This document shows positions 1-8,964 of a stretch of DNA of 64,000 bases, in pieces (within the stretch, counting starts at the first letter, position 1; every line of letters starts with the position of its first letter). The stretch lies in UHGV virus genome UHGV-0060833. The stretch is one strand, 5' to 3'. A model generated the notes under the pieces. It made no database searches and was not told the origin of the DNA. It saw only the letters and a list, made by a program, of their open reading frames with translations. The stretch comes from a virus. Position numbers and translations under genes: made by a program.

Positions 1-773
1 CCGATTGTTTTAAGCTGTTCTATCGCTTTCTTAATGATACGGTTTTGCTCGCCAACAGCTGACTGCAAAGCCAGGCGCTCACGGATTCGCGCGAACGATA
101 GCGGCAACGGGTTCTGCGGAAGGCTTTCGATGAAAGTGTAAATGGCTTGTGCAGCTTCTTTCTTCGGAAGGGCACGCAAGGCGTGGTGTTGCAACAGAAC
201 GCGATAATCAAGCTGGAACAGCTCCCAGAGCTTCGAATCGGCCTCCAGCTCTATCAGATCAAGGTCAGCATCAAAACGCCCGACCTTCAGCAGACCAGTC
301 TGATAGCCGCCTTTAGCATCTTTTCCGCGCTTAAAAGCGATACCCTTGTTACGCAAGCGTCCAAGTGATTCATGAATGGTTAAACGCAGTTTCGCATCCA
401 GACGTTTTGAGGGGAAACCACAGGCTTTAGCGAACTCCTGAAACGATAACTGGATGGTGTTTGAAGACAAGCCGTATTTGCTGAACGCGTAGATGACACC
501 GATCCACGTTTTGAAATCAGTATCCATATCGAGTCGAGGACCGGTGATTTTAATATCATCGTAACCCTCGGCTTTAGCTATCTCCAGCTGGGAAAACGCT
601 TTGGTGGCATCAATCTCTTTACTTTCTCCTTTGCTCTTTGATGGCTTCGGCACGAATACCCCCAAGCGCATCAACGCTACAGGCTGCACAGTGTTGTTTG
701 AATTAACTGTTAGTTCTTTTGCCTTACTTTCAATGTCTGCGTAAAGAATATCGGAGATAAATGATTGATTCAT
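1..773 (-). CDS. repA: Plasmid replication initiator RepA, C-terminus cut by window edge
   Basis: ATG at 773-771 on minus strand; frame open to position 1; translation MNQSFISDILYADIESKAKELTVNSNN... recognised as P1 RepA; abuts the iteron origin. Absent from ORF track because no stop in window. Confidence 0.85.
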   Translation of the reverse strand, partial: MNQSFISDILYADIESKAKELTVNSNNTVQPVALMRLGVFVPKPSKSKGESKEIDATKAFSQLEIAKAEGYDDIKITGPRLDMDTDFKTWIGVIYAFSKYGLSSNTIQLSFQEFAKACGFPSKRLDAKLRLTIHESLGRLRNKGIAFKRGKDAKGGYQTGLLKVGRFDADLDLIELEADSKLWELFQLDYRVLLQHHALRALPKKEAAQAIYTFIESLPQNPLPLSFARIRERLALQSAVGEQNRIIKKAIEQLKTI

Positions 774-786
774 ATTACTTTTTCCG

Positions 787-1052
787 AATTATGTGGATAG
801 TTTTTATAAGTGGTGATAACTACCCAGGCTTTCCCGTCAGCACACATCCTATATCCCGCCAGCACACATTAGCAACCCGTCAGCACACATTTTTATCCCT
901 CCAGCACACATCGTTTTCCCTCCAGCACACATCGCGATACACTTCTAAGCCAGACGTGGCGCGGCCTGCAACGATCAGGGATCTATATGGATCTAATTGG
1001 GATCTGTATGGACCTAATTATTGGATCTACCCAGTGGATAATGTGGATAAGT
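787..1052. other. Plasmid origin oriR: DnaA boxes, five iterons, GATC heptamer cluster
   Basis: TGTGGATAG at 792-800 and tandem TGGATAA boxes ~1034-1051; five ~19-bp repeats with CAGCACACA core (831-932); five GATC sites in AT-rich spacer 973-1027. Confidence 0.8.
831..932 (+). repeat. Five direct iterons (incC-type RepA binding sites)
   Basis: Five spaced copies of ...CCGTCAGCACACAT... read directly; the 97-aa ORF 761..1054 is an artefact of translating these repeats. Confidence 0.85.
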
Positions 1053-1059
1053 GAAAAAC

Positions 1060-1082
1060 CGGCCAACATAGCCGGTTGGAAG
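1060..1082 (-). terminator. Hairpin with T-run on minus strand, downstream of the minus-strand operon ending at 1091
   Basis: AACCGGC-CAACATA-GCCGGTT stem-loop preceded by AAAAA on plus strand (U-run for minus transcript). Confidence 0.5.
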
Positions 1083-1090
1083 GAAGGGTA

Positions 1091-1483
1091 TTATTCTACG
1101 CTTTCGATAAGAAGACCATGTTCATAACATTTAAGCTCATCGCCTTCGTACAGGAATTGGTATCCAATACCACCATTTTCATGGACATTAGGGAATAACT
1201 CATAACTCACTGAAGAGCAAATCACACCAATGCAGCGATCAACGCCTTCTCGTCCTTCAGTGCTGAAAAAATCCTCTTCGGTAAGAACATGAGTACATTG
1301 CTCATCAGCATAGGTCGGAAATACATGCTCGATGCAATCCGGGTGTTTTAAACCAAGCTGATCGGCAAGCTCGAAAGCATGACGGTATTGTTCAGATCCT
1401 GGCTTGCCAACAGTGATGTGCTCAATTTTGTAGATTGAAGTCGCTTTGTTGATAGTTTGCTTTACTGTTACTTTATCAGACAT
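1091..1483 (-). CDS. Hypothetical protein (position of P1 upfA)
   Basis: 130-aa ORF, first gene of a co-oriented minus-strand block next to oriR; no recognisable motif. Confidence 0.55.
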   Translation of the reverse strand: MSDKVTVKQTINKATSIYKIEHITVGKPGSEQYRHAFELADQLGLKHPDCIEHVFPTYADEQCTHVLTEEDFFSTEGREGVDRCIGVICSSVSYELFPNVHENGGIGYQFLYEGDELKCYEHGLLIESVE

Positions 1484-1494
1484 AAAAATCCCTT

Positions 1495-1746
1495 TTAGTT
1501 ACCTCTGATAGCGCGGTTGTAATCATTAACGTTGCGATTCTTCCTGTTAATCCCCATCAGCATCGTTTCTGTATCGAGGATATACGCTGGCAGATCATCA
1601 AAATATTCACTGCTAAACTCTGGCATCCTGCACATAAATGCACTTTTGGGGGCAGGGTGGTTAACCTTTGTCGGCGTCGGCGTTAAATTCGGTGATCGAC
1701 TGCCGGAGCAACCGCTGAGTGTCAGCAGGAATGCGCTGGCGAACAT
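1495..1746 (-). CDS. Outer-membrane spanin-like lipoprotein (Rz1-like)
   Basis: Signal peptide plus lipobox LTLSGC, proline-rich mature part (PNLTPTPTKVNHPAPK); overlaps 3' end of the upstream gene in a different frame, as Rz1 does. Start chosen at internal Met; could be 1806 or 1827. Confidence 0.55.
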   Translation of the reverse strand: MFASAFLLTLSGCSGSRSPNLTPTPTKVNHPAPKSAFMCRMPEFSSEYFDDLPAYILDTETMLMGINRKNRNVNDYNRAIRGN

Positions 1747-2083
1747 TACCCGCCGCAACCAGTTGTTTCTGAACTTCAGCTTTTCGTTCCATTTGCCTGT
1801 CAGCATATTTGGCTTGTTCTGATTCATTTTTCACTTCCTGGCTGTGAAAATGTTGCTCTGCTTTGTTCATCGTCTCAATGGTCTGGTTAAGATCCATTAT
1901 TGACTTATCACGTTCCTTAACAGCCTGATCAAGACTGCCAATTTTCTCCATGGCTTGCTTTAGCTGATGACGTTCCCATGCAAACCCAGCACCAACAAGT
2001 GTGCAAATCAGAACAAGAACACCAGTAGCAGCAAGTTTCTCCTTCAAAGACAAAGCTGTTTTTAACGTAGAAAAGAATGACAT
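1661..2083 (-). CDS. Inner-membrane spanin-like protein (Rz-like)
   Basis: AGGAGG 6 nt before ATG at 2083; N-terminal TM helix (ATGVLVLICTLVGAGFAW) followed by coiled-coil-like periplasmic part; lipoprotein gene overlaps out of frame. Confidence 0.6.
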   Translation of the reverse strand: MSFFSTLKTALSLKEKLAATGVLVLICTLVGAGFAWERHQLKQAMEKIGSLDQAVKERDKSIMDLNQTIETMNKAEQHFHSQEVKNESEQAKYADRQMERKAEVQKQLVAAGNVRQRIPADTQRLLRQSITEFNADADKG

Positions 2084-2122
2084 GTCTTCCTCCTGAAGAA
2101 AAATTATCAATGAAGTCCTTTG

Positions 2123-2968
2123 TTACTGTGCCGCTTTGTTTAATTCATCAAGAACAGAATCAGGAACCAAAGCGGCAACTGCGCTGGCTGTGCTGACCTT
2201 ATTTGCTGATGCTTCCGCAAGCGCGGTACCGATAGCATGGTTATAAGCAGTTATGGCTACGTTGGCGCTTTCATTCGCTCGTTCATACTGCTGTTGTAAC
2301 GCAGTTGTGGGCGCTGTTGTCTGGTTGAAAACAACCCCAAACTGTTCAGTTGCTACTTTCAGAGATTCAATTTGCTCTTCTGTTAGTGCTGGTGGGGGAG
2401 TGGCAGTGCCGCCGCCTGAACCAGAGCCTGACGAGCTTCCTGAGCCAGTGTTAAGGGTCTGGTTAATCTCCCCCATAGCAGCGACTAAACTTGATGTATT
2501 AAGCGCGTTAACAGCGTCCTCAAGCGATTTAGTAATATTCACATCACCAATGGCAATAGAGATCGGCAGTTCTGAAACTTCTCGCTCATTAGCACGGCAG
2601 TAAACATCCCAACCAATATCGAGTTGAAGCAGCATTGACAGATCTGCATAACCAGCCAACAGGTCCGCGTGCTTAGTTGCCAGTTCTCCAATGTTCGTTA
2701 AGCCAGTTGTGGTTGTTCTGATCGTTGAAACATAGCTGGTAATAGTGTCGGGATAGACAATTGTATCCAGAATTAATCCGGTCAATTCTTCTGCAAGCAG
2801 TTTTGCTGTGTTAGCACTGTTTCGTGCCGATGTTATGGCACCAGGTGTTTTCATCCCACCGGCGGCGGCCAATTTTTTATATGCGGATAACTGGTAGTCT
2901 TTTTCCAGCATGATATCTCCTAACTTACCTGAACCAGGCCGTCTCCGGACGCTACGGTAGATCCGCAT
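2123..2968 (-). CDS. Hypothetical Ser/Thr/Gly-rich protein
   Basis: 281-aa ORF with GSGSSSGSGSGGG linker; co-oriented with neighbours. Confidence 0.5.
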   Translation of the reverse strand: MRIYRSVRRRPGSGKLGDIMLEKDYQLSAYKKLAAAGGMKTPGAITSARNSANTAKLLAEELTGLILDTIVYPDTITSYVSTIRTTTTGLTNIGELATKHADLLAGYADLSMLLQLDIGWDVYCRANEREVSELPISIAIGDVNITKSLEDAVNALNTSSLVAAMGEINQTLNTGSGSSSGSGSGGGTATPPPALTEEQIESLKVATEQFGVVFNQTTAPTTALQQQYERANESANVAITAYNHAIGTALAEASANKVSTASAVAALVPDSVLDELNKAAQ

Positions 2969-3204
2969 GAAACAGGGTCACCAACGCATACGATCCCTTT
3001 ACCATTGACGGTAAACCATGCCCTGGTTGATATAGCTTGCCCACCGTGCGTACTGTTTCCATCGGTATGCTGTGCATATTGCTTACCATCAACTAACACT
3101 TCGACTCCGTTGACTTTAAGTAGTGGTTCACTCTCTACAGGAGGCCTGGATGGGAATCCTCCGTGCCCCGAACAAATGCTGTCTTTTGTTGCAATACTTG
3201 CCAC
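2920..3204 (-). CDS. PAAR-like small protein (putative spike-tip cap)
   Basis: 94 aa; VGDPVSCG and ICSGHGG motifs resemble PAAR-repeat Zn-binding proteins. True start may be internal. Confidence 0.5.
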   Translation of the reverse strand: MASIATKDSICSGHGGFPSRPPVESEPLLKVNGVEVLVDGKQYAQHTDGNSTHGGQAISTRAWFTVNGKGIVCVGDPVSCGSTVASGDGLVQVS

Positions 3205-3284
3205 GTCATCACCAATTATTTGCTCTGGTTTTCGTTATTTTAACTTAGGTTACTTGTGGTCTACATGGTGTTAACTATTAAATA

Positions 3285-3301
3285 ATTGCTCTAATAAATA
3301 T
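3285..3301 (+). promoter_or_regulatory. C1 repressor operator-like site
   Basis: ATTGCTCTAATAAATAT, 15/17 to ATTGCTCTAATAAATTT; sits ~70 bp upstream of the uhr-hrdC-dmt block. Confidence 0.7.
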
Positions 3302-3372
3302 TGTTTTTTATGTCGTGTTTTCGGTACCATTCAGCCATCGCCCTTCAATGGGTATTTGTTTGGAGTCGTCAG

Positions 3373-3657
3373 ATGCAGATGGAGCTAATAAGCCGCAAAG
3401 AGTTCGATAGCCGTGTAACCAGCGGTGAACTCGACAACTTGCAGGCTATCAAGGTGAAAGAAGGCTTTTGCCTCATTGGGAATCAGAGCGGAACAAATCG
3501 CGTTTTTATGCTTCGCCGTACGGATTTGAAGCCATTTGTCTGGAAGAACGAAATTGGTCCCAGCTCATACGCTCAAACTAGGGGGTGCCTCAACCTGGCC
3601 TTTTTCTACAAAAACGAGCTTTCTGTGGTTGATATTCAAGGGTTACAACATGTTTAA
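3373..3657 (+). CDS. Small protein upstream of the rdgC homolog (P1 uhr position)
   Basis: GGAG 7 nt before ATG at 3373; overlaps hrdC start by 8 nt. Confidence 0.45.
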
Positions 3658-4555
3658 GCACTGGAAAAACATTACTATTTTTAAACTTTCTCGTGAGGCG
3701 GATCTGACCGACTTGGAAGATAAAAAGAAAATGATCCTTTTCACGCCATGCGGTAGTCAGGATATGGCCAAGTTCGGTTTTGTATCTCCATTTGGTGATA
3801 ATTCCGAAGTTATCGCTATGCATGGAAATGGTTTTATCCTTGTTGAAGCAAAGCGCGAAACAAAAATTCTTCCCCCGCCGGTTATCCAGCGAGCTATTCA
3901 AGAAAAAATTGAAAAACTCGAGCAAGAACAAGCGCGTAAACTGAAGAAAACAGAGAAGGACTCCCTGAAAGACGAAGTTCTGCATTCTCTTCTGCCACGG
4001 GCTTTTTCAAAGTTCTCTGTTATCCAGGCGATCTACGACGGTTCAACTAAACGTATCTATATCAATGCCAGCGCGCGGCAGGCAGAGGATATGCTCGCGC
4101 TTATGCGTAAATCTCTGGGTTCTCTTCCTGTTGTTCCCCTAAGTGTTGAAAATCCCATTGAATTAACGCTGACCGACTGGGTACGTGATGGTAGTGCTCC
4201 ACAGGGATTTCAAATGGGGGATGCGGCAGAACTTAAGGCAGTGCTTGAGGATGGCGGTATTGCCCGAGTGAAAAAGCAGGACTTGGGAAGTGATGAAATA
4301 TCCACACACCTGGAAGCTGGCAAGCTCGTCACTAAGTTGGCACTCGACTGGCAGAACCGCATTAAATTTACACTGGACCATAACTTCAGCCTTACCAGCG
4401 TCAAATTTGCGGATGAATTGCTTGAGCAGAACGCTGATATTGATAGTGAAGATGTTGCGCAGCGACTGGACGCAGATTTCTTCCTGTTGACCAGTGAAAT
4501 TTCGTGCCTGGTTGATGCTCTGGTAAATGCCCTTGGTGGAGAGGCTAAGCAGTGA
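3650..4555 (+). CDS. hrdC: RdgC-like recombination-associated protein
   Basis: [14 protein letters not shown]..., [48 protein letters not shown] and later blocks match E. coli RdgC along the whole length. Confidence 0.9.
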
Positions 4556-6816
4556 AAGAGCTGTGCTATGGATCTGTTTGCAGTGGAATTGAAGCCGCGA
4601 GTATTGCCTGGGAACCGTTGGGTATGCGTCCGGCGTGGTTTGCTGAAATCGAGCCTTTTCCATCTGCCGTTCTTGCGCACCGCTGGCCCCATGTCGCCAA
4701 CCTTGGCGACATGACAAAACTTGCCAAAAAAGTCCTGGCTGGGGAAATCGAATCCCCTGATGTGCTCGTCGGGGGAACACCTTGTCAGGCATTCAGTATC
4801 GCTGGATTACGTGGTGGGCTTGATGATGAGCGTGGCGCGCTAACTTTAAAGTATGTGGAGCTTGCAAATGCAATTGACGACAAACGGGCTGAGTCATTTC
4901 TCAAACCAGCCGTTATCGTCTGGGAAAATGTCCCAGGAGTCTTGTCATCGGCAGATAACGCCTTCGGATGTTTCCTTGCCGGATTGGCTGGAGAAGATGC
5001 GCCATTTGAACCAGGTGATCGACCTGAATCAGGAAAAAGTAACGCGTTCTGGCGGTGGGATGGCAAAACCGGTTGCCATGCTCCAAAGTGGCCGCAGTGT
5101 GGTTGTATTTATGGACCGCAGCGAAAGGTGGCCTGGAGAATCCTTGATGCCCAATACTTCGGAGTGGCACAACGACGCCGACGCGTGTTTGTTGTCGCAA
5201 GTGCTCGAACAGACCTCGATCCCGCAACGGTACTTTTTGAGTTCGAAGGCGTGCGCCGGGATATTGCGCCGAGCCGAAAAAAGAAGGAAATCGCTTCCGC
5301 CATTATTGCAAATGGCGCTGCAATCAGTGGCGAAAGCCTAAATCCATGCCTACATGCTGACATGCCACCCGGTATGAAATCGACGAAAGCCGTAAACGCT
5401 TTCAGGATGGCAGCATTTGGGGAATATATTGACGATGAAACCGCATCGACAGTAAAGGCAAGAGATTTTAAAGATGCCACTGACCTTGCCGTTTTTAGCA
5501 GCACAGGAGCAGCTTTTTGGTCAGAAGGGCATGGTACATTGCGGGCACGTGAGCAAGAAAGCCATGAGCATCTTGTTACATTGGCTTTTCCTGAGCGTAT
5601 GAGCGGTACACAACATGCTGCAACTAAGAATACTTCACCATCTCTAATGGCTAAAAATCCAACAGCTGTTTGCTATGAAGTAAGAAACGCAGAAGTAGCT
5701 GTCCGCCGTCTTACCCCTGTCGAATGTGAAAGGCTGCAAGGTTTTCCTGATGGGCATACGTTGATCCCGACGGAAAAGCGTAAAAAAGTTAGTTCAGATG
5801 AACTGGCATATCTTCGCAATCACTATCCAGATTTAAGCGAAGAAGAGGCCGTGATGCTTGCAGCTGACGGACCGCGTTACAAAGCGATCGGCAATAGTAT
5901 GGCAATACCAGTAATGCGCTGGATTGGCGATCGGATTACTAAGGCCGTATGTCGGCAGAAAGAAGGAAGTGAAACAAAAGAGCGAAAAGTTAAACCAGCG
6001 GCAGAATTCGAACGGTCCATATTCAAATGGGCTGGTGGAAAATTTGGTGTTCTGGAACAAATCTTTCGCTATTTGCCAGAAGGGAAGCGCCTGATTGAAC
6101 CTTTCGTTGGTGGCGGAGCTGTCTTCATGAATGCCGGATACCAGGAAAATCTGCTAAATGATGTGAATGCTGACCTGATTAACTTTTACAAGACTCTGCA
6201 ACGCGAGGCGCATTCACTTATCACTCTGGCACATCGTTTTTTCCTGGACTACAACACCCAGGAGGGATACTTGGCAGTACGGAATGCGTTTAACAAACAA
6301 GTCTATGATGATTTACATCGCGCAGCGGCGTTTTTGTTCCTGAACCGACATTGTTTTAACGGATTGACGCGTTACAACCAGGCCGGTGAGTTCAATGTCG
6401 GTTATGGGAAGTATAAAACTCCGTATTTCCCATTACAGGAGATGGAAGCCTTCCTCGGTGCGGAAGGGCGGTCTGAGTTTGTATGCGGTGATTTTGCAGC
6501 GGTGATTGAAGCTGCCGGAGAAGGAGATGTCATCTTTTGCGATCCGCCGTATGAACCGCTCCCCAATACAGAGGGGTTCACGAACTATTCCGGTCATGAC
6601 TTTAAGTTTGAAGAGCAAAAACGCCTGGTGTCTCTGTTGACGGATGCTCATCGTCGAGGTGCAAAGGTTCTCATTACTAACAGTGGCGCGCCAAACATCA
6701 GAGAGCTTTATCATGACAGTGGCTTCAGAGTGGAACCTCTTTTTGCCAGACGTTCTGTGTCTTGTAAGGGGGACACTCGAGGTGTAGCTCATGACGTTTT
6801 GGGTATATTGCTCTAA
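4552..6816 (+). CDS. dmt: Bifunctional DNA methyltransferase: N-terminal C5-cytosine MTase fused to C-terminal Dam-like N6-adenine MTase
   Basis: N-terminal GGTPCQAFS (PCQ), VIVWENVPG (ENV), [10 protein letters not shown]; C-terminal [10 protein letters not shown] and CDPPYEP (DPPY). 754 aa; start overlaps hrdC stop. Confidence 0.8.
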
Positions 6817-6823
6817 TAAATTA
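6807..6823 (+). promoter_or_regulatory. C1 operator-like site overlapping dmt stop
   Basis: ATTGCTCTAATAAATTA, 16/17 to consensus. Confidence 0.7.
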
Positions 6824-6998
6824 ATTAGTGTAATATCGCCTCAATGAATCGTGATTTATAGAGCGATTTAGCTGTTAGCCGCGACAGGCGCGGCGGTAAG
6901 CATGGCTGGGCCTAGTCCTCCCAGACAAACCACCGAGTTGCCAGGTTGACCATGCGCCTAAGTGGCAACGCCGAAGTGCGTTACGAGCTTCCAGTTTG

Positions 6999-7024
6999 CC
7001 CATCTTCGGGTGGGCGTTTTTTTC
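6999..7024 (+). terminator. Rho-independent terminator
   Basis: GCCCATC-TTCG-GGTGGGC hairpin followed by GTTTTTTT. Confidence 0.6.
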
Positions 7025-7489
7025 AGGGTTTTCGTCATGGTTAGCGACTTTGCGGCGGTTTAGAAACTGACCATTAAAGTAAATGCAAACGATGATCTGA
7101 TGATGGTAGCGGCCTAAGAAACCAGATGCCACGGGGTATGAGTCGTCCCCCGTCAAAAAAATCGACCGCAGAGTGTCCCCGTCTGTGTATTAGGGAACGG
7201 GGAGGCACAACAGGTAAGGGCGCTGGTGTGATTAACCAGATGAACGAGAAGGGGCCATCTGTTGGTCAGCGTCCTTTCCTGTTGCGTTTTCTTTTCAGCG
7301 TAACAGCGGTGCTTAACAGCACTTTGGGTACAGTTCCACGAATTTACGGGTATATCCCGTCATGCTGAAGGCGCTAATCACGCTGGAAGCCAGGGTTGTG
7401 CATCCCCTGTTACCGAATTGCAGCCAGGGCGCGGTGCGCCGAAAAGCATACGGAGGTGGAAGCCCTCGCCGGAGACGTACCCGGCAAGT

Positions 7490-7565
7490 GATGGTGTAGC
7501 TCAGCGTTTAGAGCGGTTGACTATTAATCAACGGGTCGATGGTTCAAATCCATCCACCATCGCCA
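7490..7565 (+). tRNA. tRNA with anticodon loop CUAUUAA (anticodon AUU, nominally Asn)
   Basis: Folded by eye: acceptor GATGGTG/CACCATC, T-loop TTCAAAT, 5-bp anticodon stem GTTGA/TCAAC, encoded CCA. A at position 34 is atypical. Confidence 0.8.
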
Positions 7566-7567
7566 AT

Positions 7568-7643
7568 GCCGGTTTAGCTCAGTTGGTAGAGCGCCTGCCT
7601 TGTAAGCAGGATGTCAGCGGTTCGAGTCCGTTAATCGGCACCA
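7568..7643 (+). tRNA. tRNA-Thr (anticodon UGU)
   Basis: Acceptor GCCGGTT/AATCGGC with one G-U, D-loop AGTTGGTAG, anticodon loop CTTGTAA, T-loop TTCGAGT, encoded CCA; 2 nt after the preceding tRNA. Confidence 0.9.
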
Positions 7644-7651
7644 GCACAACA

Positions 7652-7725
7652 GGTAAGGGTATTTTGCGACGCCGGAGATCGCCGAGCTTGGCAGAGGGTT
7701 CGAATCCCTACGAAGTACCCTTACC
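7652..7725 (+). ncRNA. tRNA-like element: 10-bp acceptor-like stem, D-arm-like hairpin, canonical T-arm, no anticodon arm
   Basis: GGTAAGGGTA pairs TACCCTTACC; AGGG-TTCGAAT-CCCT T-arm; GCGA-CGCCGGAGA-TCGC D-like arm; only ~11 nt where the anticodon arm should be. Confidence 0.3.
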
Positions 7726-7894
7726 GTTGTGATGAAGTGCAGCTCTTTGAAGCAACCAGAAGATAAGCATCTGGCTTCACAACATAAACCGCAGGAACGA
7801 CCAATAAACGGTAGTCCGTATGGAGAACACCCCGTTGAGGAAGAGGCCTGGCCGGAACCGTAACCGGCACTACAACGTTGAGAACACTGGCGTA

Positions 7895-7976
7895 ACGGGG
7901 TCATATCCCAATCTACGAATAAATGTTGCGTTGCAGCGTGACAACCAGTGTTCTCAACATTGTGGTGAATGCACAG
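7895..7976 (+). repeat. Copy 1 of a repeated non-coding element
   Basis: Shares GTAACGGG-T-CATATCCCAATCTAC ... GTTGCG ... GTGAATGC with 8172-8234; embedded in a long inverted repeat (7872-7890 vs 7945-7963). Confidence 0.4.
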
Positions 7977-8171
7977 GCTGATGTGCCGCAACTACAGTAG
8001 TGCGCGCTTTGCGGGGCTTGCTACAACCCTGTGTCGGAGTTCAGCACCGACCATCACAGTTTGATTCTCTGGCATGAGCATAACGCTGAAATAAGTCCAG
8101 TCTGGTGCGGCCCGATCACCCGCCGTTAGCTCCACGAAACGGAGCACGTAACAGGTAAGAGCATTCTCCTG

Positions 8172-8234
8172 TAACGGGTTCATATCCCAATCTACAGGTC
8201 CACCAAGAATGCTCTTTCCGTTGCGGTGAATGCG
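8172..8234 (+). repeat. Copy 2 of the repeated non-coding element
   Basis: AACGGGTTCATATCCCAATCTAC ... GTTGCGGTGAATGCG; no credible ORF across it. Confidence 0.4.
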
Positions 8235-8374
8235 GCTAAGCGCACGCGGGGAAATGGTTATATCTGTCCATTATTTCTCCTTGTTTCCACGTCCACGGTG
8301 GATAACCAGCCAAAGGACACCGGGAGGCACCCGGCACCGCAACCTTATTTCCCAACCAGTAATGAGGTTAATAA

Positions 8375-8800
8375 ATGCTCGGCATTCTCAAAAAGAAATT
8401 CCGCAAAGCGGCTGGCGGAGTCAAGAAGATGGAAAACCGTGATGCGGTGGAAGCGACTGTCTGGGGCGCATATTCCATTGCATACTCTGACGGCACCTGC
8501 GATGCGAAAGAAATTGCAGTATTGGAAAAAACCATTGCAGCACTTCCTGCCTTTGCGCCGTTCTCCGGTGAAATTGCCCAGATGAGCGCCAATATTCGCG
8601 CTCAATATGAAGCCTCGCCGCGCCGAGCGAATGCCCAGGCTTTACGTGAACTGGCTGACGTGTCTGGAACTAATGATGCGGTAGATGTTCTGTGCCTATG
8701 CATTGATATTGCTGACCAGGATGGCATTGGGGCAGAAGATCAGGAGCAATTGAAGAAAATTGCCCAGGCTCTTCAATTGCCACTGGAACAGTATATCTGA
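8375..8800 (+). CDS. TerB-like domain protein (P1 tciA position)
   Basis: 141 aa with TerB-like pattern (AYSIAYSDGTCDAKEIAVLEKTIAAL ... LCLCIDIADQDGIGAEDQEQLKKIA). Confidence 0.6.
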   Translation: MLGILKKKFRKAAGGVKKMENRDAVEATVWGAYSIAYSDGTCDAKEIAVLEKTIAALPAFAPFSGEIAQMSANIRAQYEASPRRANAQALRELADVSGTNDAVDVLCLCIDIADQDGIGAEDQEQLKKIAQALQLPLEQYI

Positions 8801-8964
8801 TGGTTATAAAAGCACGTCTAATTCTGGCTTTGGTTTTTCTCGTGCTATCTGTGCTGGTGGATTTCACCAGCACAATCCTGTCGGTTTTATCCGACGGGGC
8901 GTTGGTAGCAGTAGCTGTAACATTGGTATGGCCGATATTTAAACCAGCCTCGAAGGATCAGTGA
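8800..8964 (+). CDS. Small hydrophobic membrane peptide (54 aa)
   Basis: ATG overlaps upstream stop (TGATG); MVIKARLILALVFLVLSVLVDFTSTILSVLSDGALVAVAVTLVWPIF...; below ORF-track size cutoff. Confidence 0.4.
   Translation: MVIKARLILALVFLVLSVLVDFTSTILSVLSDGALVAVAVTLVWPIFKPASKDQ

Follow-up and report, generated by a model that had tools for sequence, protein, structure and literature searches.

Modular structured RNA units in the untranslated leader of the phage P1 ban operon and their relatives in other phages

The locus and its RNA units

We analysed a stretch of viral DNA of 64,000 nucleotides (nt; UHGV-0060833, below referred to as a whole as the window), and in particular the segment that separates a pair of transfer RNA (tRNA) genes from tciA, a gene with a TerB domain. 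The window is phage P1: positions 6800-8900 are 99.3% identical to NC_005856, from which the annotation was transferred (window coordinate = locus coordinate + 5299). The segment belongs to the ban operon, where the order is the promoter Pban, a "dicF-like region", tRNA-Asn, tRNA-Thr, about 730 nt with the minus-strand frames plp and upl, tciA, tciB, tciC, tRNA-Ile(CAT) and ban; hence, the stretch from Pban to tciA (8375) is wholly untranslated in the sense direction. This leader of approximately 1.5 kb, in an operon repressed by C1, carries a structured array in the sense orientation downstream of Pban. The segment under study is not protein-coding and is part of this array, made up of four structured RNA units on the plus strand (A-D) with tRNA-Asn and tRNA-Thr set among them.

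Each unit consists of two parts. The first one, hairpin 1, is a long near-perfect hairpin with the lower stem ACAACAGGUAAG.../...CUUWCCGUUGYG, a bulged A and/or a U-U mismatch, and an interchangeable tip. The second one, domain 2, starts with GUUGYGGUG, which overlaps the end of hairpin 1 and has its complement, CACCRCAAC, 60-200 nt downstream. The parts are listed below (z, stability of the fold relative to shuffled sequences; bits, score with a covariance model of hairpin 1).

7199-7487, plus strand: unit A, with hairpin 1 at 7203-7290 (z = -4.5; 41.9 bits) and inverted repeats
7199-7211 / 7395-7407, plus strand: long-range helix of unit A, seen as inverted repeats
A few nt 5' of tRNA-Asn, plus strand: terminal small hairpin of unit A, GCCGGAGACGTACCCGGC
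7644-7783, plus strand: unit B, with hairpin 1 at 7644-7732 (z = -5.4; 60.7 bits)
Within hairpin 1 of unit B, plus strand: apical T-arm-like module AGGGTTCGAATCCCT
Within unit B, plus strand: short domain 2 with the closing helix GTTGTGATGAAG / CTTCACAAC and the hairpin CCAGAAGATAAGCATCTGG (7756-7774)
7784-7867, plus strand: spacer with the boundary hairpin CCGGAACCGTAACCGG (7852-7867) at its end, conserved in other phages (87% in Citrobacter phage phiNP)
7868-7972, plus strand: hairpin 1 of unit C, arms 7868-7890 / 7945-7967 (z = -5.5; 45.8 bits)
7892-7916 and approximately 7924-7943, plus strand: apical parts of unit C, the motif hairpin and a second sub-hairpin
7959-8059, plus strand: domain 2 of unit C, delimited by sequence, family-wide pair counts and fold
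7959-7967 and 8051-8059, plus strand: closing strands of this domain, 5' ATTGTGGTG and 3' CCATCACAG
7971-7986 and 8034-8050, plus strand: its hairpins GCACA-GGCTGA-TGTGC and TCGG-AGTTCAGCA-CCGA, besides variable ones
8060-8147, plus strand: conserved "pre-element" with the terminal hairpin GCTCC-ACGAAAC-GGAGC (8129-8145)
8148-8233, plus strand: hairpin 1 of unit D (z = -4.4; 72.6 bits), motif hairpin at 8171-8195; lower stem ACGTAACAGGTAAGAGCATTCT / AGAATGCTCTTTCCGTTGCGGT with a bulged A and a U-U mismatch
8220-8343, plus strand: STnc100-like domain 2 of unit D, from Rfam STnc100 and the fold, with internal hairpins
8220-8228 / 8335-8343 and 8320-8334, plus strand: its closing helix GTTGCGGTG / CACCGCAAC and terminal hairpin CCGGG-AGGCA-CCCGG

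Domain 2 of unit D ends 32 nt before the start codon of tciA. The short domain of the unit B type is also present in SPN9CC, Sasha and pJN2-26, and the insert of unit B holds a T-arm sequence, AGGGUUCGAAUCCCU, that recurs in a different frame in locus L034. The pre-element, GGCATGAGCATAACGCTGAAATAAGTCC...GATCACC...GCTCCACGAAACGGAGC, is non-coding and stands 5' of units in unrelated phages as well (L008, L017, L032, L041, L049, L079); in other phages it is sometimes located directly 3' of a tRNA.

Conservation of hairpin 1

All four hairpins are far more stable than their shuffles (z = -4.4 to -5.5), while the intervening spacers are not, and the lower-stem sequence AACAGGTAAG(G/A)G is common to all of them. 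The covariance model, built from 47 hairpins, matches the window at exactly four places, all on the plus strand and all in this leader, with 41.9-72.6 bits, versus 24-29.9 bits for the reverse strand at the same places.

Among 80 distinct matches from 68 sources, 98.1% of cells are standard pairs, the alignment being fitted to the model (here and below, pair counts rest on model-fitted or constructed alignments). Changes on both sides are observed in 10 of the 18 pairs of hairpin 1 (79 cells). None of 500 shuffles attained the observed pairing values, and if the partners were slid by 1-3 columns, the paired fraction fell to 38-61%. The units of P1 covary with each other, AAGAGCA/UGCUCUU in D corresponding to AAGGGCG/CGUCCUU in A, AAGGGUA/UACCCUU in B and GAGAACA/UGUUCUC in C, and the bulged A and/or the U-U mismatch (C-A in D6) keeps a constant position.

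Thus, given the strand-specific scores and the compensatory changes with G-U pairs, we conclude that the hairpin 1 elements are RNA. A preliminary description of the locus had proposed a covariation analysis, and in the 80 distinct relatives the pairing is indeed kept through compensatory changes, G-U pairs being tolerated. It had also suggested small RNAs or protein-binding sites: the RNA half of this suggestion stands, as the scores are strand-specific, the changes compensatory, the orientation sense and the open reading frames (ORFs) not conserved (see below), whereas a DNA site for a protein is unsupported. That the units are strand-specific, covarying, modular RNA, situated in untranslated leaders and tRNA arrays, we consider solid.

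Structure of domain 2 and its relation to STnc100

Domain 2 contains the first hairpin GCGCA-GGCUGA-UGCGC, one or more variable hairpins, and the last hairpin GCCGG-AGAUCAGCA-CCGGC, which abuts the 3' strand of the closing helix. The loop of the first hairpin is complementary to that of the last one (GCUGA/UCAGC, also seen in unit C), and in targeted scans of the first loop the variant GGUCGA was always accompanied by UCGAC, in three backgrounds of the last hairpin. When 27 distinct units were placed in a constructed alignment that joins their 5' and 3' parts, 95.4% of cells were paired, and each of three elements, the first hairpin, the loop-loop contact and the last hairpin, shows changes on both sides. 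For the closing helix the 3' strand was picked by complementarity, hence this helix is no independent test; within one domain type it switches from GUUGCGGUG/CACCGCAAC in P1 to GUUGUGGUG/CACCACAAC in L021.

The modelled topology is cloverleaf-like: the closing helix, the first hairpin after a 3-nt joint, a middle arm, the stacked last hairpin, and the contact between the loops. The likeness to a tRNA would therefore concern the shape only, since no tRNA model matched; the tRNA model and ARAGORN recovered only the three true tRNAs, and no unit was matched even at E up to 10. The strand GUUGUGGUG can alternatively pair with CACAAC at the start of hairpin 1, so that a helix with the upstream partner and one with the downstream partner draw on the same nucleotides and are in competition. 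In the energy model the upstream partner wins in unit C, and the downstream one in unit D and in L017.

The Rfam family STnc100 (RF02076) matches 8222-8341 with 41.9 bits (E = 4.4e-7, model positions 31-147), the gathering threshold of 47 not being reached. By this match, domain 2 of unit D is clearly related to STnc100, albeit below the curated cut-off, and the commoner, GGCUGA-type domain was not detected by the STnc100 model. The relation of the units to STnc100 and the PasD RNAs via domain 2 is solid, and we propose that in lambdoid prophages domain 2 constitutes the 5' body of these Hfq-bound small RNAs (sRNAs).

The 25-nt motif

The motif GTAACGGGKTCATATCCCAATCTAC occurs in the window in exactly two copies, 7892-7916 and 8171-8195, identical at 24/25 positions; no third copy with up to three mismatches exists in the 64 kb, and none is expected from shuffles. 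The two copies of approximately 25 nt that the preliminary description had placed between the tRNA pair and the TerB-like gene are thus real, with the starts given there 1-3 nt off, and the search of the rest of the genome that it had recommended returns these two only. The long inverted repeat drawn around copy 1 was also recovered (arms 7868-7890 / 7945-7967, 23 nt, 91% complementary). The stretch said to be shared downstream of the copies exists, but is looser than claimed: TGTTCTCAACATTGTGGTGAATGC (7949-7972) and TGCTCTTTCCGTTGCGGTGAATGC (8210-8233) have 75% identity.

The interval of that description corresponds to unit C (hairpin 7868-7972, domain 2 to 8059), the pre-element (8060-8147) and hairpin 1 of unit D (8148-8233). 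Absent from it were the long inverted repeat that likewise encloses copy 2 (8154-8167 / 8206-8219), two further hairpins of the same kind upstream (7199-7295 and 7644-7732), and the second conserved domain that follows each of the four hairpins. The four-unit array, its membership of a phage-wide family and the STnc100-like overlap of unit D hence go beyond it.

The motif folds into a GGG/CCC stem of 3 bp, which is capped by a loop of 7 nt (UUCAUAU or GUCAUAU) and stands over an AC/AAUC internal loop. The loop retains the U-CAU-A pattern of the Met/Ile2 anticodon loop, which is a resemblance only. We observed the motif in at least 120 viral contigs, where three different frames of hairpin carry it (the C and D types of P1 and the lambdoid post-terminator type CUACAUUCGCCUGAGCAUCA...UGGUGCUCAGCCGAAUGUGGUGAAUGC), and its flanking helix covaries (GCGUA/UACG, CUGUA/UACAG, UGAAUA/UAUUCA). 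Recurrence in three frames together with a covarying flanking stem argues for a functional RNA module. Thus, the 25-nt repeat is an interchangeable apical module of units C and D and not a peculiarity of P1. The module is dispensable in nature, as seen in Ro157c2YLVW and in phages of the SJ46 type. In Salmonella phage SJ46 (L005, approximately 2565-2654), and also in L157 and L171, the 5' arm of hairpin C is joined to the 3' arm of hairpin D, and the arms are mismatched.

Distribution of the family

Distant BLAST of 7640-8375 retrieved unannotated pieces in lambdoid, P22-like, Klebsiella and Cronobacter phages, and megablast against E. coli genomes gave short unannotated matches only. A pattern search with the halves of the hairpin frame yielded at least 120 viral contigs, with 69 distinct context sequences and 54 distinct inserts. 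In the design of the family, a near-invariant 5' frame (G)CACAACAGGTAAGAGCATTG is followed by 35-65 nt of unalignable insert, a near-invariant 3' frame CAGTGCTCTTTCCGTTGTGGTGAATGCGCAGGCTGATGCGC, a second variable stretch of 40-170 nt and then GCCGGAGATCAGCACCGGCCACCACAAC; the identity of the frames is partly imposed by the search pattern, yet the flanks outside the pattern, which are not imposed, are conserved.

A typical unit matches at least 242 records of phages, both temperate and virulent. These include lambdoid, P22-like, P1-like and T1-like phages, Phapecoctavirus and SSU5-like phage-plasmids, to which prophages across Enterobacterales and Aeromonas are added. The exact 24-nt frame was found at 37 places in species-representative genomes, the hosts including Escherichia, Kosakonia, Citrobacter, Rahnella, Erwinia, Pantoea, Serratia, Edwardsiella and Aeromonas. 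As the frame is exact from Escherichia to Edwardsiella, Erwinia and Aeromonas prophages, its recognition by a conserved host factor is indicated. The unit of hairpin plus domain matched no Rfam family at threshold; the annotation at the matches in the records inspected was nothing or short hypothetical ORFs only; and a full-text literature search with the frame sequences returned nothing relevant. This is hence a large family, unannotated in the records inspected, and such conservation usually marks an interaction with core host machinery.

The units are associated with tRNA genes and with leaders of operons. Of 80 distinct hairpins, 11 begin their pairing 1 nt past the 3' end of a same-strand tRNA (Thr, Ser, Asn; in one case 2 nt inside it), and 14 are followed by a tRNA within 400 nt. 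A virulent Phapecoctavirus, in its array of 10 tRNAs, also has the packing against tRNAs, and so do a T1-like Klebsiella phage and the SSU5-like phage-plasmid pJN2-26. In lambdoid phages the unit directly follows the tR' terminator of the late promoter; in the lambda-like phage HK629 a hairpin of the same frame lies between the late-promoter region and the holin gene, and in one Klebsiella phage the hairpin is situated between a Q-like gene and the lysis genes, just past tRNA-Trp. In a P22-like phage the unit is just 5' of an N-like gene. Both the lambdoid and the P22-like sites are untranslated leaders of long operons. In phage Sasha the unit lies between structural genes.

Many lambdoid units have an intrinsic terminator approximately 80-100 nt downstream. 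One type of insert in the second variable stretch, AGCTAGATGGTGAGGTAATGGCTCACCATGGCGACGACGGGTAG (L026, L032, L057, L061, L099), resembles helix 11 of 16S ribosomal RNA (rRNA): 29 nt are 86% identical to E. coli rrsH (E = 0.014), and the helix is kept through paired changes. The general notion that the inserts are captured fragments of rRNA or tRNA was rejected, as BLAST of 56 units against E. coli rrnH gave 65 short matches versus 32-60 for shuffled sequences.

The reading frames plp and upl

The annotated minus-strand genes are the following.

7614-8183, minus strand: plp (7614-7991) and upl (7992-8183), annotated in P1 and judged not to be real genes

The two ORFs have 125 and 63 codons; both P1 and RCS47 carry them in their annotation, and the annotation is inconsistent among the relatives. 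The preliminary description had considered the ORFs in this region spurious and had named a conserved protein frame in homologs as what would speak for the contrary; in relatives, the frames turned out to be broken or missing. In tblastn, Plp has a shifted or truncated frame, or one with an internal stop, in P7, RCS47, Ro157c2YLVW and SJ46; replacement of its C-terminal third was also noted (P7, D6, SJ46, RCS47 and Ro157c2YLVW being compared), and Upl has no match in P7, D6 and SJ46. Plp overlaps tRNA-Thr, its last residues being the antisense of this tRNA, and one stretch of Plp also aligns with the opposite strand of the ORF itself, which is the expected behaviour of a frame crossing a hairpin. 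Neither Plp nor Upl has a Pfam match. From the broken frames, the antisense overlap with the tRNA, the lack of a Pfam match and the lack of a knock-down phenotype (see below) we conclude that plp and upl are not conserved reading frames and not genes. These long-standing "genes" of P1 are apparently artefacts over structured RNAs, and the same likely holds for many "hypothetical proteins" in other phages.

Other features of the ban leader

6807-6836, plus strand: Pban promoters and C1 operators (Op72), driving the entire untranslated leader (P1 annotation)
6931-7023, plus strand: "dicF-like region" (P1 annotation, terminator scan)
7084-7116, plus strand: mini-frame GCAAACGATGATCTGATGATGGTAGCGGCCTAA, GCA AAC GAT GAT CTG ATG ATG GTA GCG GCC TAA, encoding ANDDLMMVAA*, similar to the tag of transfer-messenger RNA (tmRNA)
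7490-7565, plus strand: tRNA-Asn, anticodon ATT here (ARAGORN; Rfam tRNA, 69.6 bits)
7568-7643, plus strand: tRNA-Thr (TGT), its CCA end 1 nt from the first paired base of unit B (ARAGORN, Rfam)
8375-8800, plus strand: tciA (TerB domain), the first protein gene past the RNA array (ORF list; Pfam TerB, 24.5 bits; P1 annotation)

An intrinsic-terminator-like hairpin at 6997-7016, followed by a T-run, closes the "dicF-like region" inside the ban leader, hence the tRNAs and ban would be reachable only by read-through. For tRNA-Asn, ARAGORN gives the anticodon ATT in the window and GTT in Ro157c2YLVW, pJN2-26 and L093; A34 in an Asn tRNA would be unusual.

The mini-frame is preceded by AAAGTAAAT, as in the resume context of tmRNA, and the E. 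coli ssrA tag, for comparison, is ANDENYALAA. Seven distinct 10-codon variants, among them ANDEQFLAVA, ANDDVVLMAA, ANEEMYLAVA and ANDNQYLAVA, occupy the same position relative to the units in other phages, and in several phages the element is directly downstream of a sigma-70-type promoter. The Rfam model tmRNA_permuted aligns with 7012-7117, that is, with the tag region only, at 24.1 bits (threshold of 47 not reached). ARAGORN found no tmRNA in the window or in seven related loci, and no tRNA-like domain of the tmRNA type was detected there. A recent capture of host ssrA was considered and rejected: the best local score, 23, stays below the highest one from shuffles, 27, and outside the tag no similarity to E. 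coli ssrA is seen. A full-text literature search for tmRNA-like phage tags and for the ban/tRNA leader of P1 returned nothing relevant. The tag-like frame in the ban leader is a separate lead, concerning phage interference with trans-translation.

Possible functions of the units

The reading that we favour, still tentatively, is that the units serve as spacer modules within tRNA/mRNA precursors, where they would aid processing and stability and from which they would be excised as stable small RNAs with interchangeable apical modules. The units would punctuate a polycistronic tRNA/mRNA precursor, and host endonucleases would cut at the conserved scaffold, the candidate enzymes being RNase III in the stems of 18-23 bp and RNase P or RNase E at the cloverleaf-like domain. 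Cutting would free the tRNAs and the downstream tciA-ban mRNA, whereas compact, nuclease-resistant small RNAs would remain. A processing role is favoured because the units are packed against tRNA ends, because their stems (approximately 20 bp, a length suitable for RNase III) are RNase III-like in dimensions, because a domain 2 of tRNA-like predicted shape is close to sites of obligatory RNase P cutting, and because related RNAs are known as processed and stable.

Several observations weigh against this explanation. Spacers of this complexity are, to our knowledge, not needed for the processing of ordinary tRNA operons in E. coli. The combination of a near-invariant scaffold and diverse apical modules is not explained by processing alone, which leaves room for trans-acting, mimic or catalytic roles. 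In Klebsiella phage ZCKP8 (L150, 1613-2290; virulent, T1-like) a cassette consisting of a promoter, a tag-like frame, a unit and two tRNAs is antisense to the flanking structural genes, and its own promoter and antisense position point to a self-standing RNA gene, not only a spacer. The loop-loop contact of domain 2 has uncompensated exceptions (GGAUGA in L134, L135 and L137; GGCUUA in L146; also L025 and L040). Ro157c2YLVW lacks 13 nt of the motif hairpin of unit D, and in SJ46 the fusion of C and D through the 25-nt repeat removed 279 bp, in both cases with no obvious harm. Finally, knock-down of plp, upl, trnT, tciA-C and ban by CRISPR interference was without effect on P1 plating (PMC10695390).

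It is less probable that the units are trans-acting, Hfq-dependent base-pairing sRNAs, with the scaffold as a stable carrier and the variable inserts or adjacent single strands as seeds that would regulate mRNAs of the host or the phage, in the manner described for PasD and STnc100. The similarity of unit D to STnc100 is in line with this, as PasD1 and PasD2 are abundant, Northern-verified and Hfq-associated in enteropathogenic E. coli (EPEC) and have many partners in RIL-seq (in which interacting RNAs are ligated and sequenced; PMC8550237). So are the pyrimidine-rich AUUAUUUCUCCUUGUUUCC in the variable part of unit D, similar to the PasD stretch around the seed, and the intrinsic terminators past many lambdoid units. 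However, PasD2 has its seed and terminator 3' of the structured domain, whereas unit D of P1 has no such extension and runs straight into tciA; the terminator scan gave none for units A-C; the variable inserts are for the most part folded rather than single-stranded; and the window contains no complementary target of the 25-nt motif.

We consider it unlikely that the units are mimics or decoys of tRNA, tmRNA or rRNA on a stable scaffold, titrating or diverting host RNA-binding enzymes or RNA-cleaving defence toxins such as anticodon nucleases, although a decoy role would complement the neighbouring phage tRNA genes. The motif loop keeps U33-CAU-A37 of the Met/Ile2 anticodon loop, the T-arm sequence in unit B is perfect, one type of insert is similar to 16S helix 11, the tag-like frame is in the same leader, the units are linked to phage tRNA arrays, and hypervariable inserts within an invariant frame are the typical pattern of an arms race. 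On the other hand, the inserts overall are no more rRNA-like than shuffles, no unit has an Rfam match to tRNA, tmRNA or YrlA at threshold, the motif stem is just 3 bp, unlike an anticodon arm, and the argument is one from resemblance, with no known partner protein.

A wider version, in which the hairpin-plus-cloverleaf units, the tag-like element and the phage tRNAs together form one "display scaffold" presenting mimics of translation RNAs (anticodon-loop-like, T-arm-like, 16S-helix-like and tmRNA-message-like), seems to us similarly unlikely. If it were true, a conserved host machine would be subverted by the mimics, or defence nucleases that target RNA would be blunted by them, and the invariant scaffold would either give a conserved host enzyme its handle or have catalytic activity of its own.

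Structural insulation, where dense folding would block Rho loading and premature termination, or would recruit an antitermination complex of the Nus type, is improbable. The units are always in long untranslated stretches of operons that need read-through, and the 3' strand of many hairpins reads UGCUCUUU, similarly to the start of the rrn boxA. Yet the boxA-like sequence is base-paired, and it is conserved neither in units A-C of P1 nor in the short domain found in SPN9CC and Sasha; Q is already present on lambdoid late transcripts; and insulation would need neither an invariant sequence nor a loop-loop contact. A boxA/nut reading of the short domain 5' of the P22-like N gene was rejected separately, the string not being conserved among SPN9CC, Sasha, pJN2-26 and P1.

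HDV-like (hepatitis delta virus-like) ribozymes are reported beside phage tRNAs, and the units could, by analogy, trim tRNA 3' ends as self-cleaving ribozymes or as catalytic RNA of another kind, which we hold to be very improbable. The exact abutment to tRNA 3' ends, the invariant unpaired nucleotides, the tertiary loop-loop contact and the alternative pairing of GUUGUGGUG with an upstream or downstream partner would fit such an activity; but no Rfam ribozyme covariance model matched the P1 leader or the related loci, and many units are not beside a tRNA. The nested double pseudoknot of HDV-like ribozymes was judged by eye to be unfit because of the helix order.

Just as improbable is a role at the level of DNA, either as recombination linkers that shuffle tRNA and accessory cassettes or as sites for DNA-binding proteins. 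The recombination through the 25-nt repeat in SJ46, the gains and losses of whole modules among P1 relatives and the association of the same variable segments with different partners could be explained in this way. Vice versa, compensatory changes and G-U pairs keep an RNA fold on one strand only, the orientation follows local transcription in the contexts examined, and a linker would need neither stems nor a loop-loop contact. Recombination may nonetheless occur as a by-product of the repeats. Finally, that plp, a putative lipoprotein gene, and upl are real, the repeats being features of coding sequence, is hardly credible: the ORFs exist and are annotated, but with frameshifts, an in-frame stop, truncation and module replacement in relatives and the other evidence given above.

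P1 and lambda-like phages are genetically tractable, which makes processing, partners and phenotype of the favoured processing modules directly accessible.

Comparison with known systems

At permissive thresholds, Rfam matched only tRNAs at threshold in the P1 leader and the related loci, the matches to miRNA, plastid and YrlA families being noise; the sole match of YrlA (RF02553), 20.6 bits against a threshold of 69, is on true tRNAs and not on a unit.

Hairpins processed by RNase III are known in the early mRNA of T7 and in the N leader of lambda. By analogy, the unit stems, with 18-23 bp and single mismatches or bulges, may be similar to these sites, as they also stand between cistrons of long phage transcripts; unlike the units, the simple sites have no invariant scaffold, modular tips or attached second domain.

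The 3'ETS-leuZ sponge RNA of E. coli is a functional spacer of a tRNA operon, and species 1 and 2 of the phage T4 tRNA cluster are stable RNAs. The units may be comparable to them as non-tRNA RNAs co-transcribed with and beside tRNAs and released by processing of the precursor, although they are far more elaborate and occur also far from tRNAs; the likeness is by description only. The c4 antisense RNA of P1 and P7 is cut by RNase P from a longer operon transcript, and the units might likewise be small structured P1 RNAs cut from a longer transcript by a host enzyme, but the fold, locus and copy number of c4 (RF01695) differ, and among the matches listed for 6800-9500 there is no Rfam C4 match.

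With tRNA-like RNAs (YrlA, the tRNA-like domain of tmRNA, punctuation of the mascRNA type) the units share a long stem with a T-arm-like module (unit B) and a cloverleaf-like domain 2, where the first and last loops are in contact as the D and T loops are; CCA or CAA is often found past the closing helix. They differ in that the closing helix of domain 2 is 9 bp and the loops do not have the T- or D-loop consensus, and P1 encodes no Ro protein.

The closest relatives are STnc100 and the PasD RNAs. STnc100 is a prophage sRNA of unknown function that has been tied structurally to the PasD sRNAs (bioRxiv 10.64898/2026.05.13.724894; PMC12370729), and PasA was reported to be processed from a longer transcript (PMC8550237; bioRxiv 10.64898/2026.05.13.724894). 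Unit D shares with STnc100 the closing helix, the internal hairpins and the terminal CCGGG-AGGCA-CCCGG hairpin beside the 3' strand, and differs from it in having no 3' extension (model positions 148-206) with the seed and the intrinsic terminator; the terminator scan found none between 8343 and tciA. PasD2 of EPEC starts exactly at the equivalent closing helix, GCAUGGUG...CGCCAUGC, and again has a seed and a terminator in a 3' extension that unit D lacks. Descriptions of STnc100 and PasD do not include hairpin 1, unlike the units of P1. In E. coli E2348/69 (L265, 1300-1530) a promoter-like TTGACT...TATTAA is located directly 5' of the closing helix of PasD2, with no hairpin-1 module before it, which suggests that domain 2 is also an independent gene. 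The neighbours of PasD2 are similar to those in P1: Q, a DUF3927/TciB-like gene and a late leader, with TerB near PasA/PasC. STnc100 and PasD thereby gain a structural and evolutionary setting, their 5' body being one form of a modular domain of phage RNA, a domain found beside tRNAs elsewhere.

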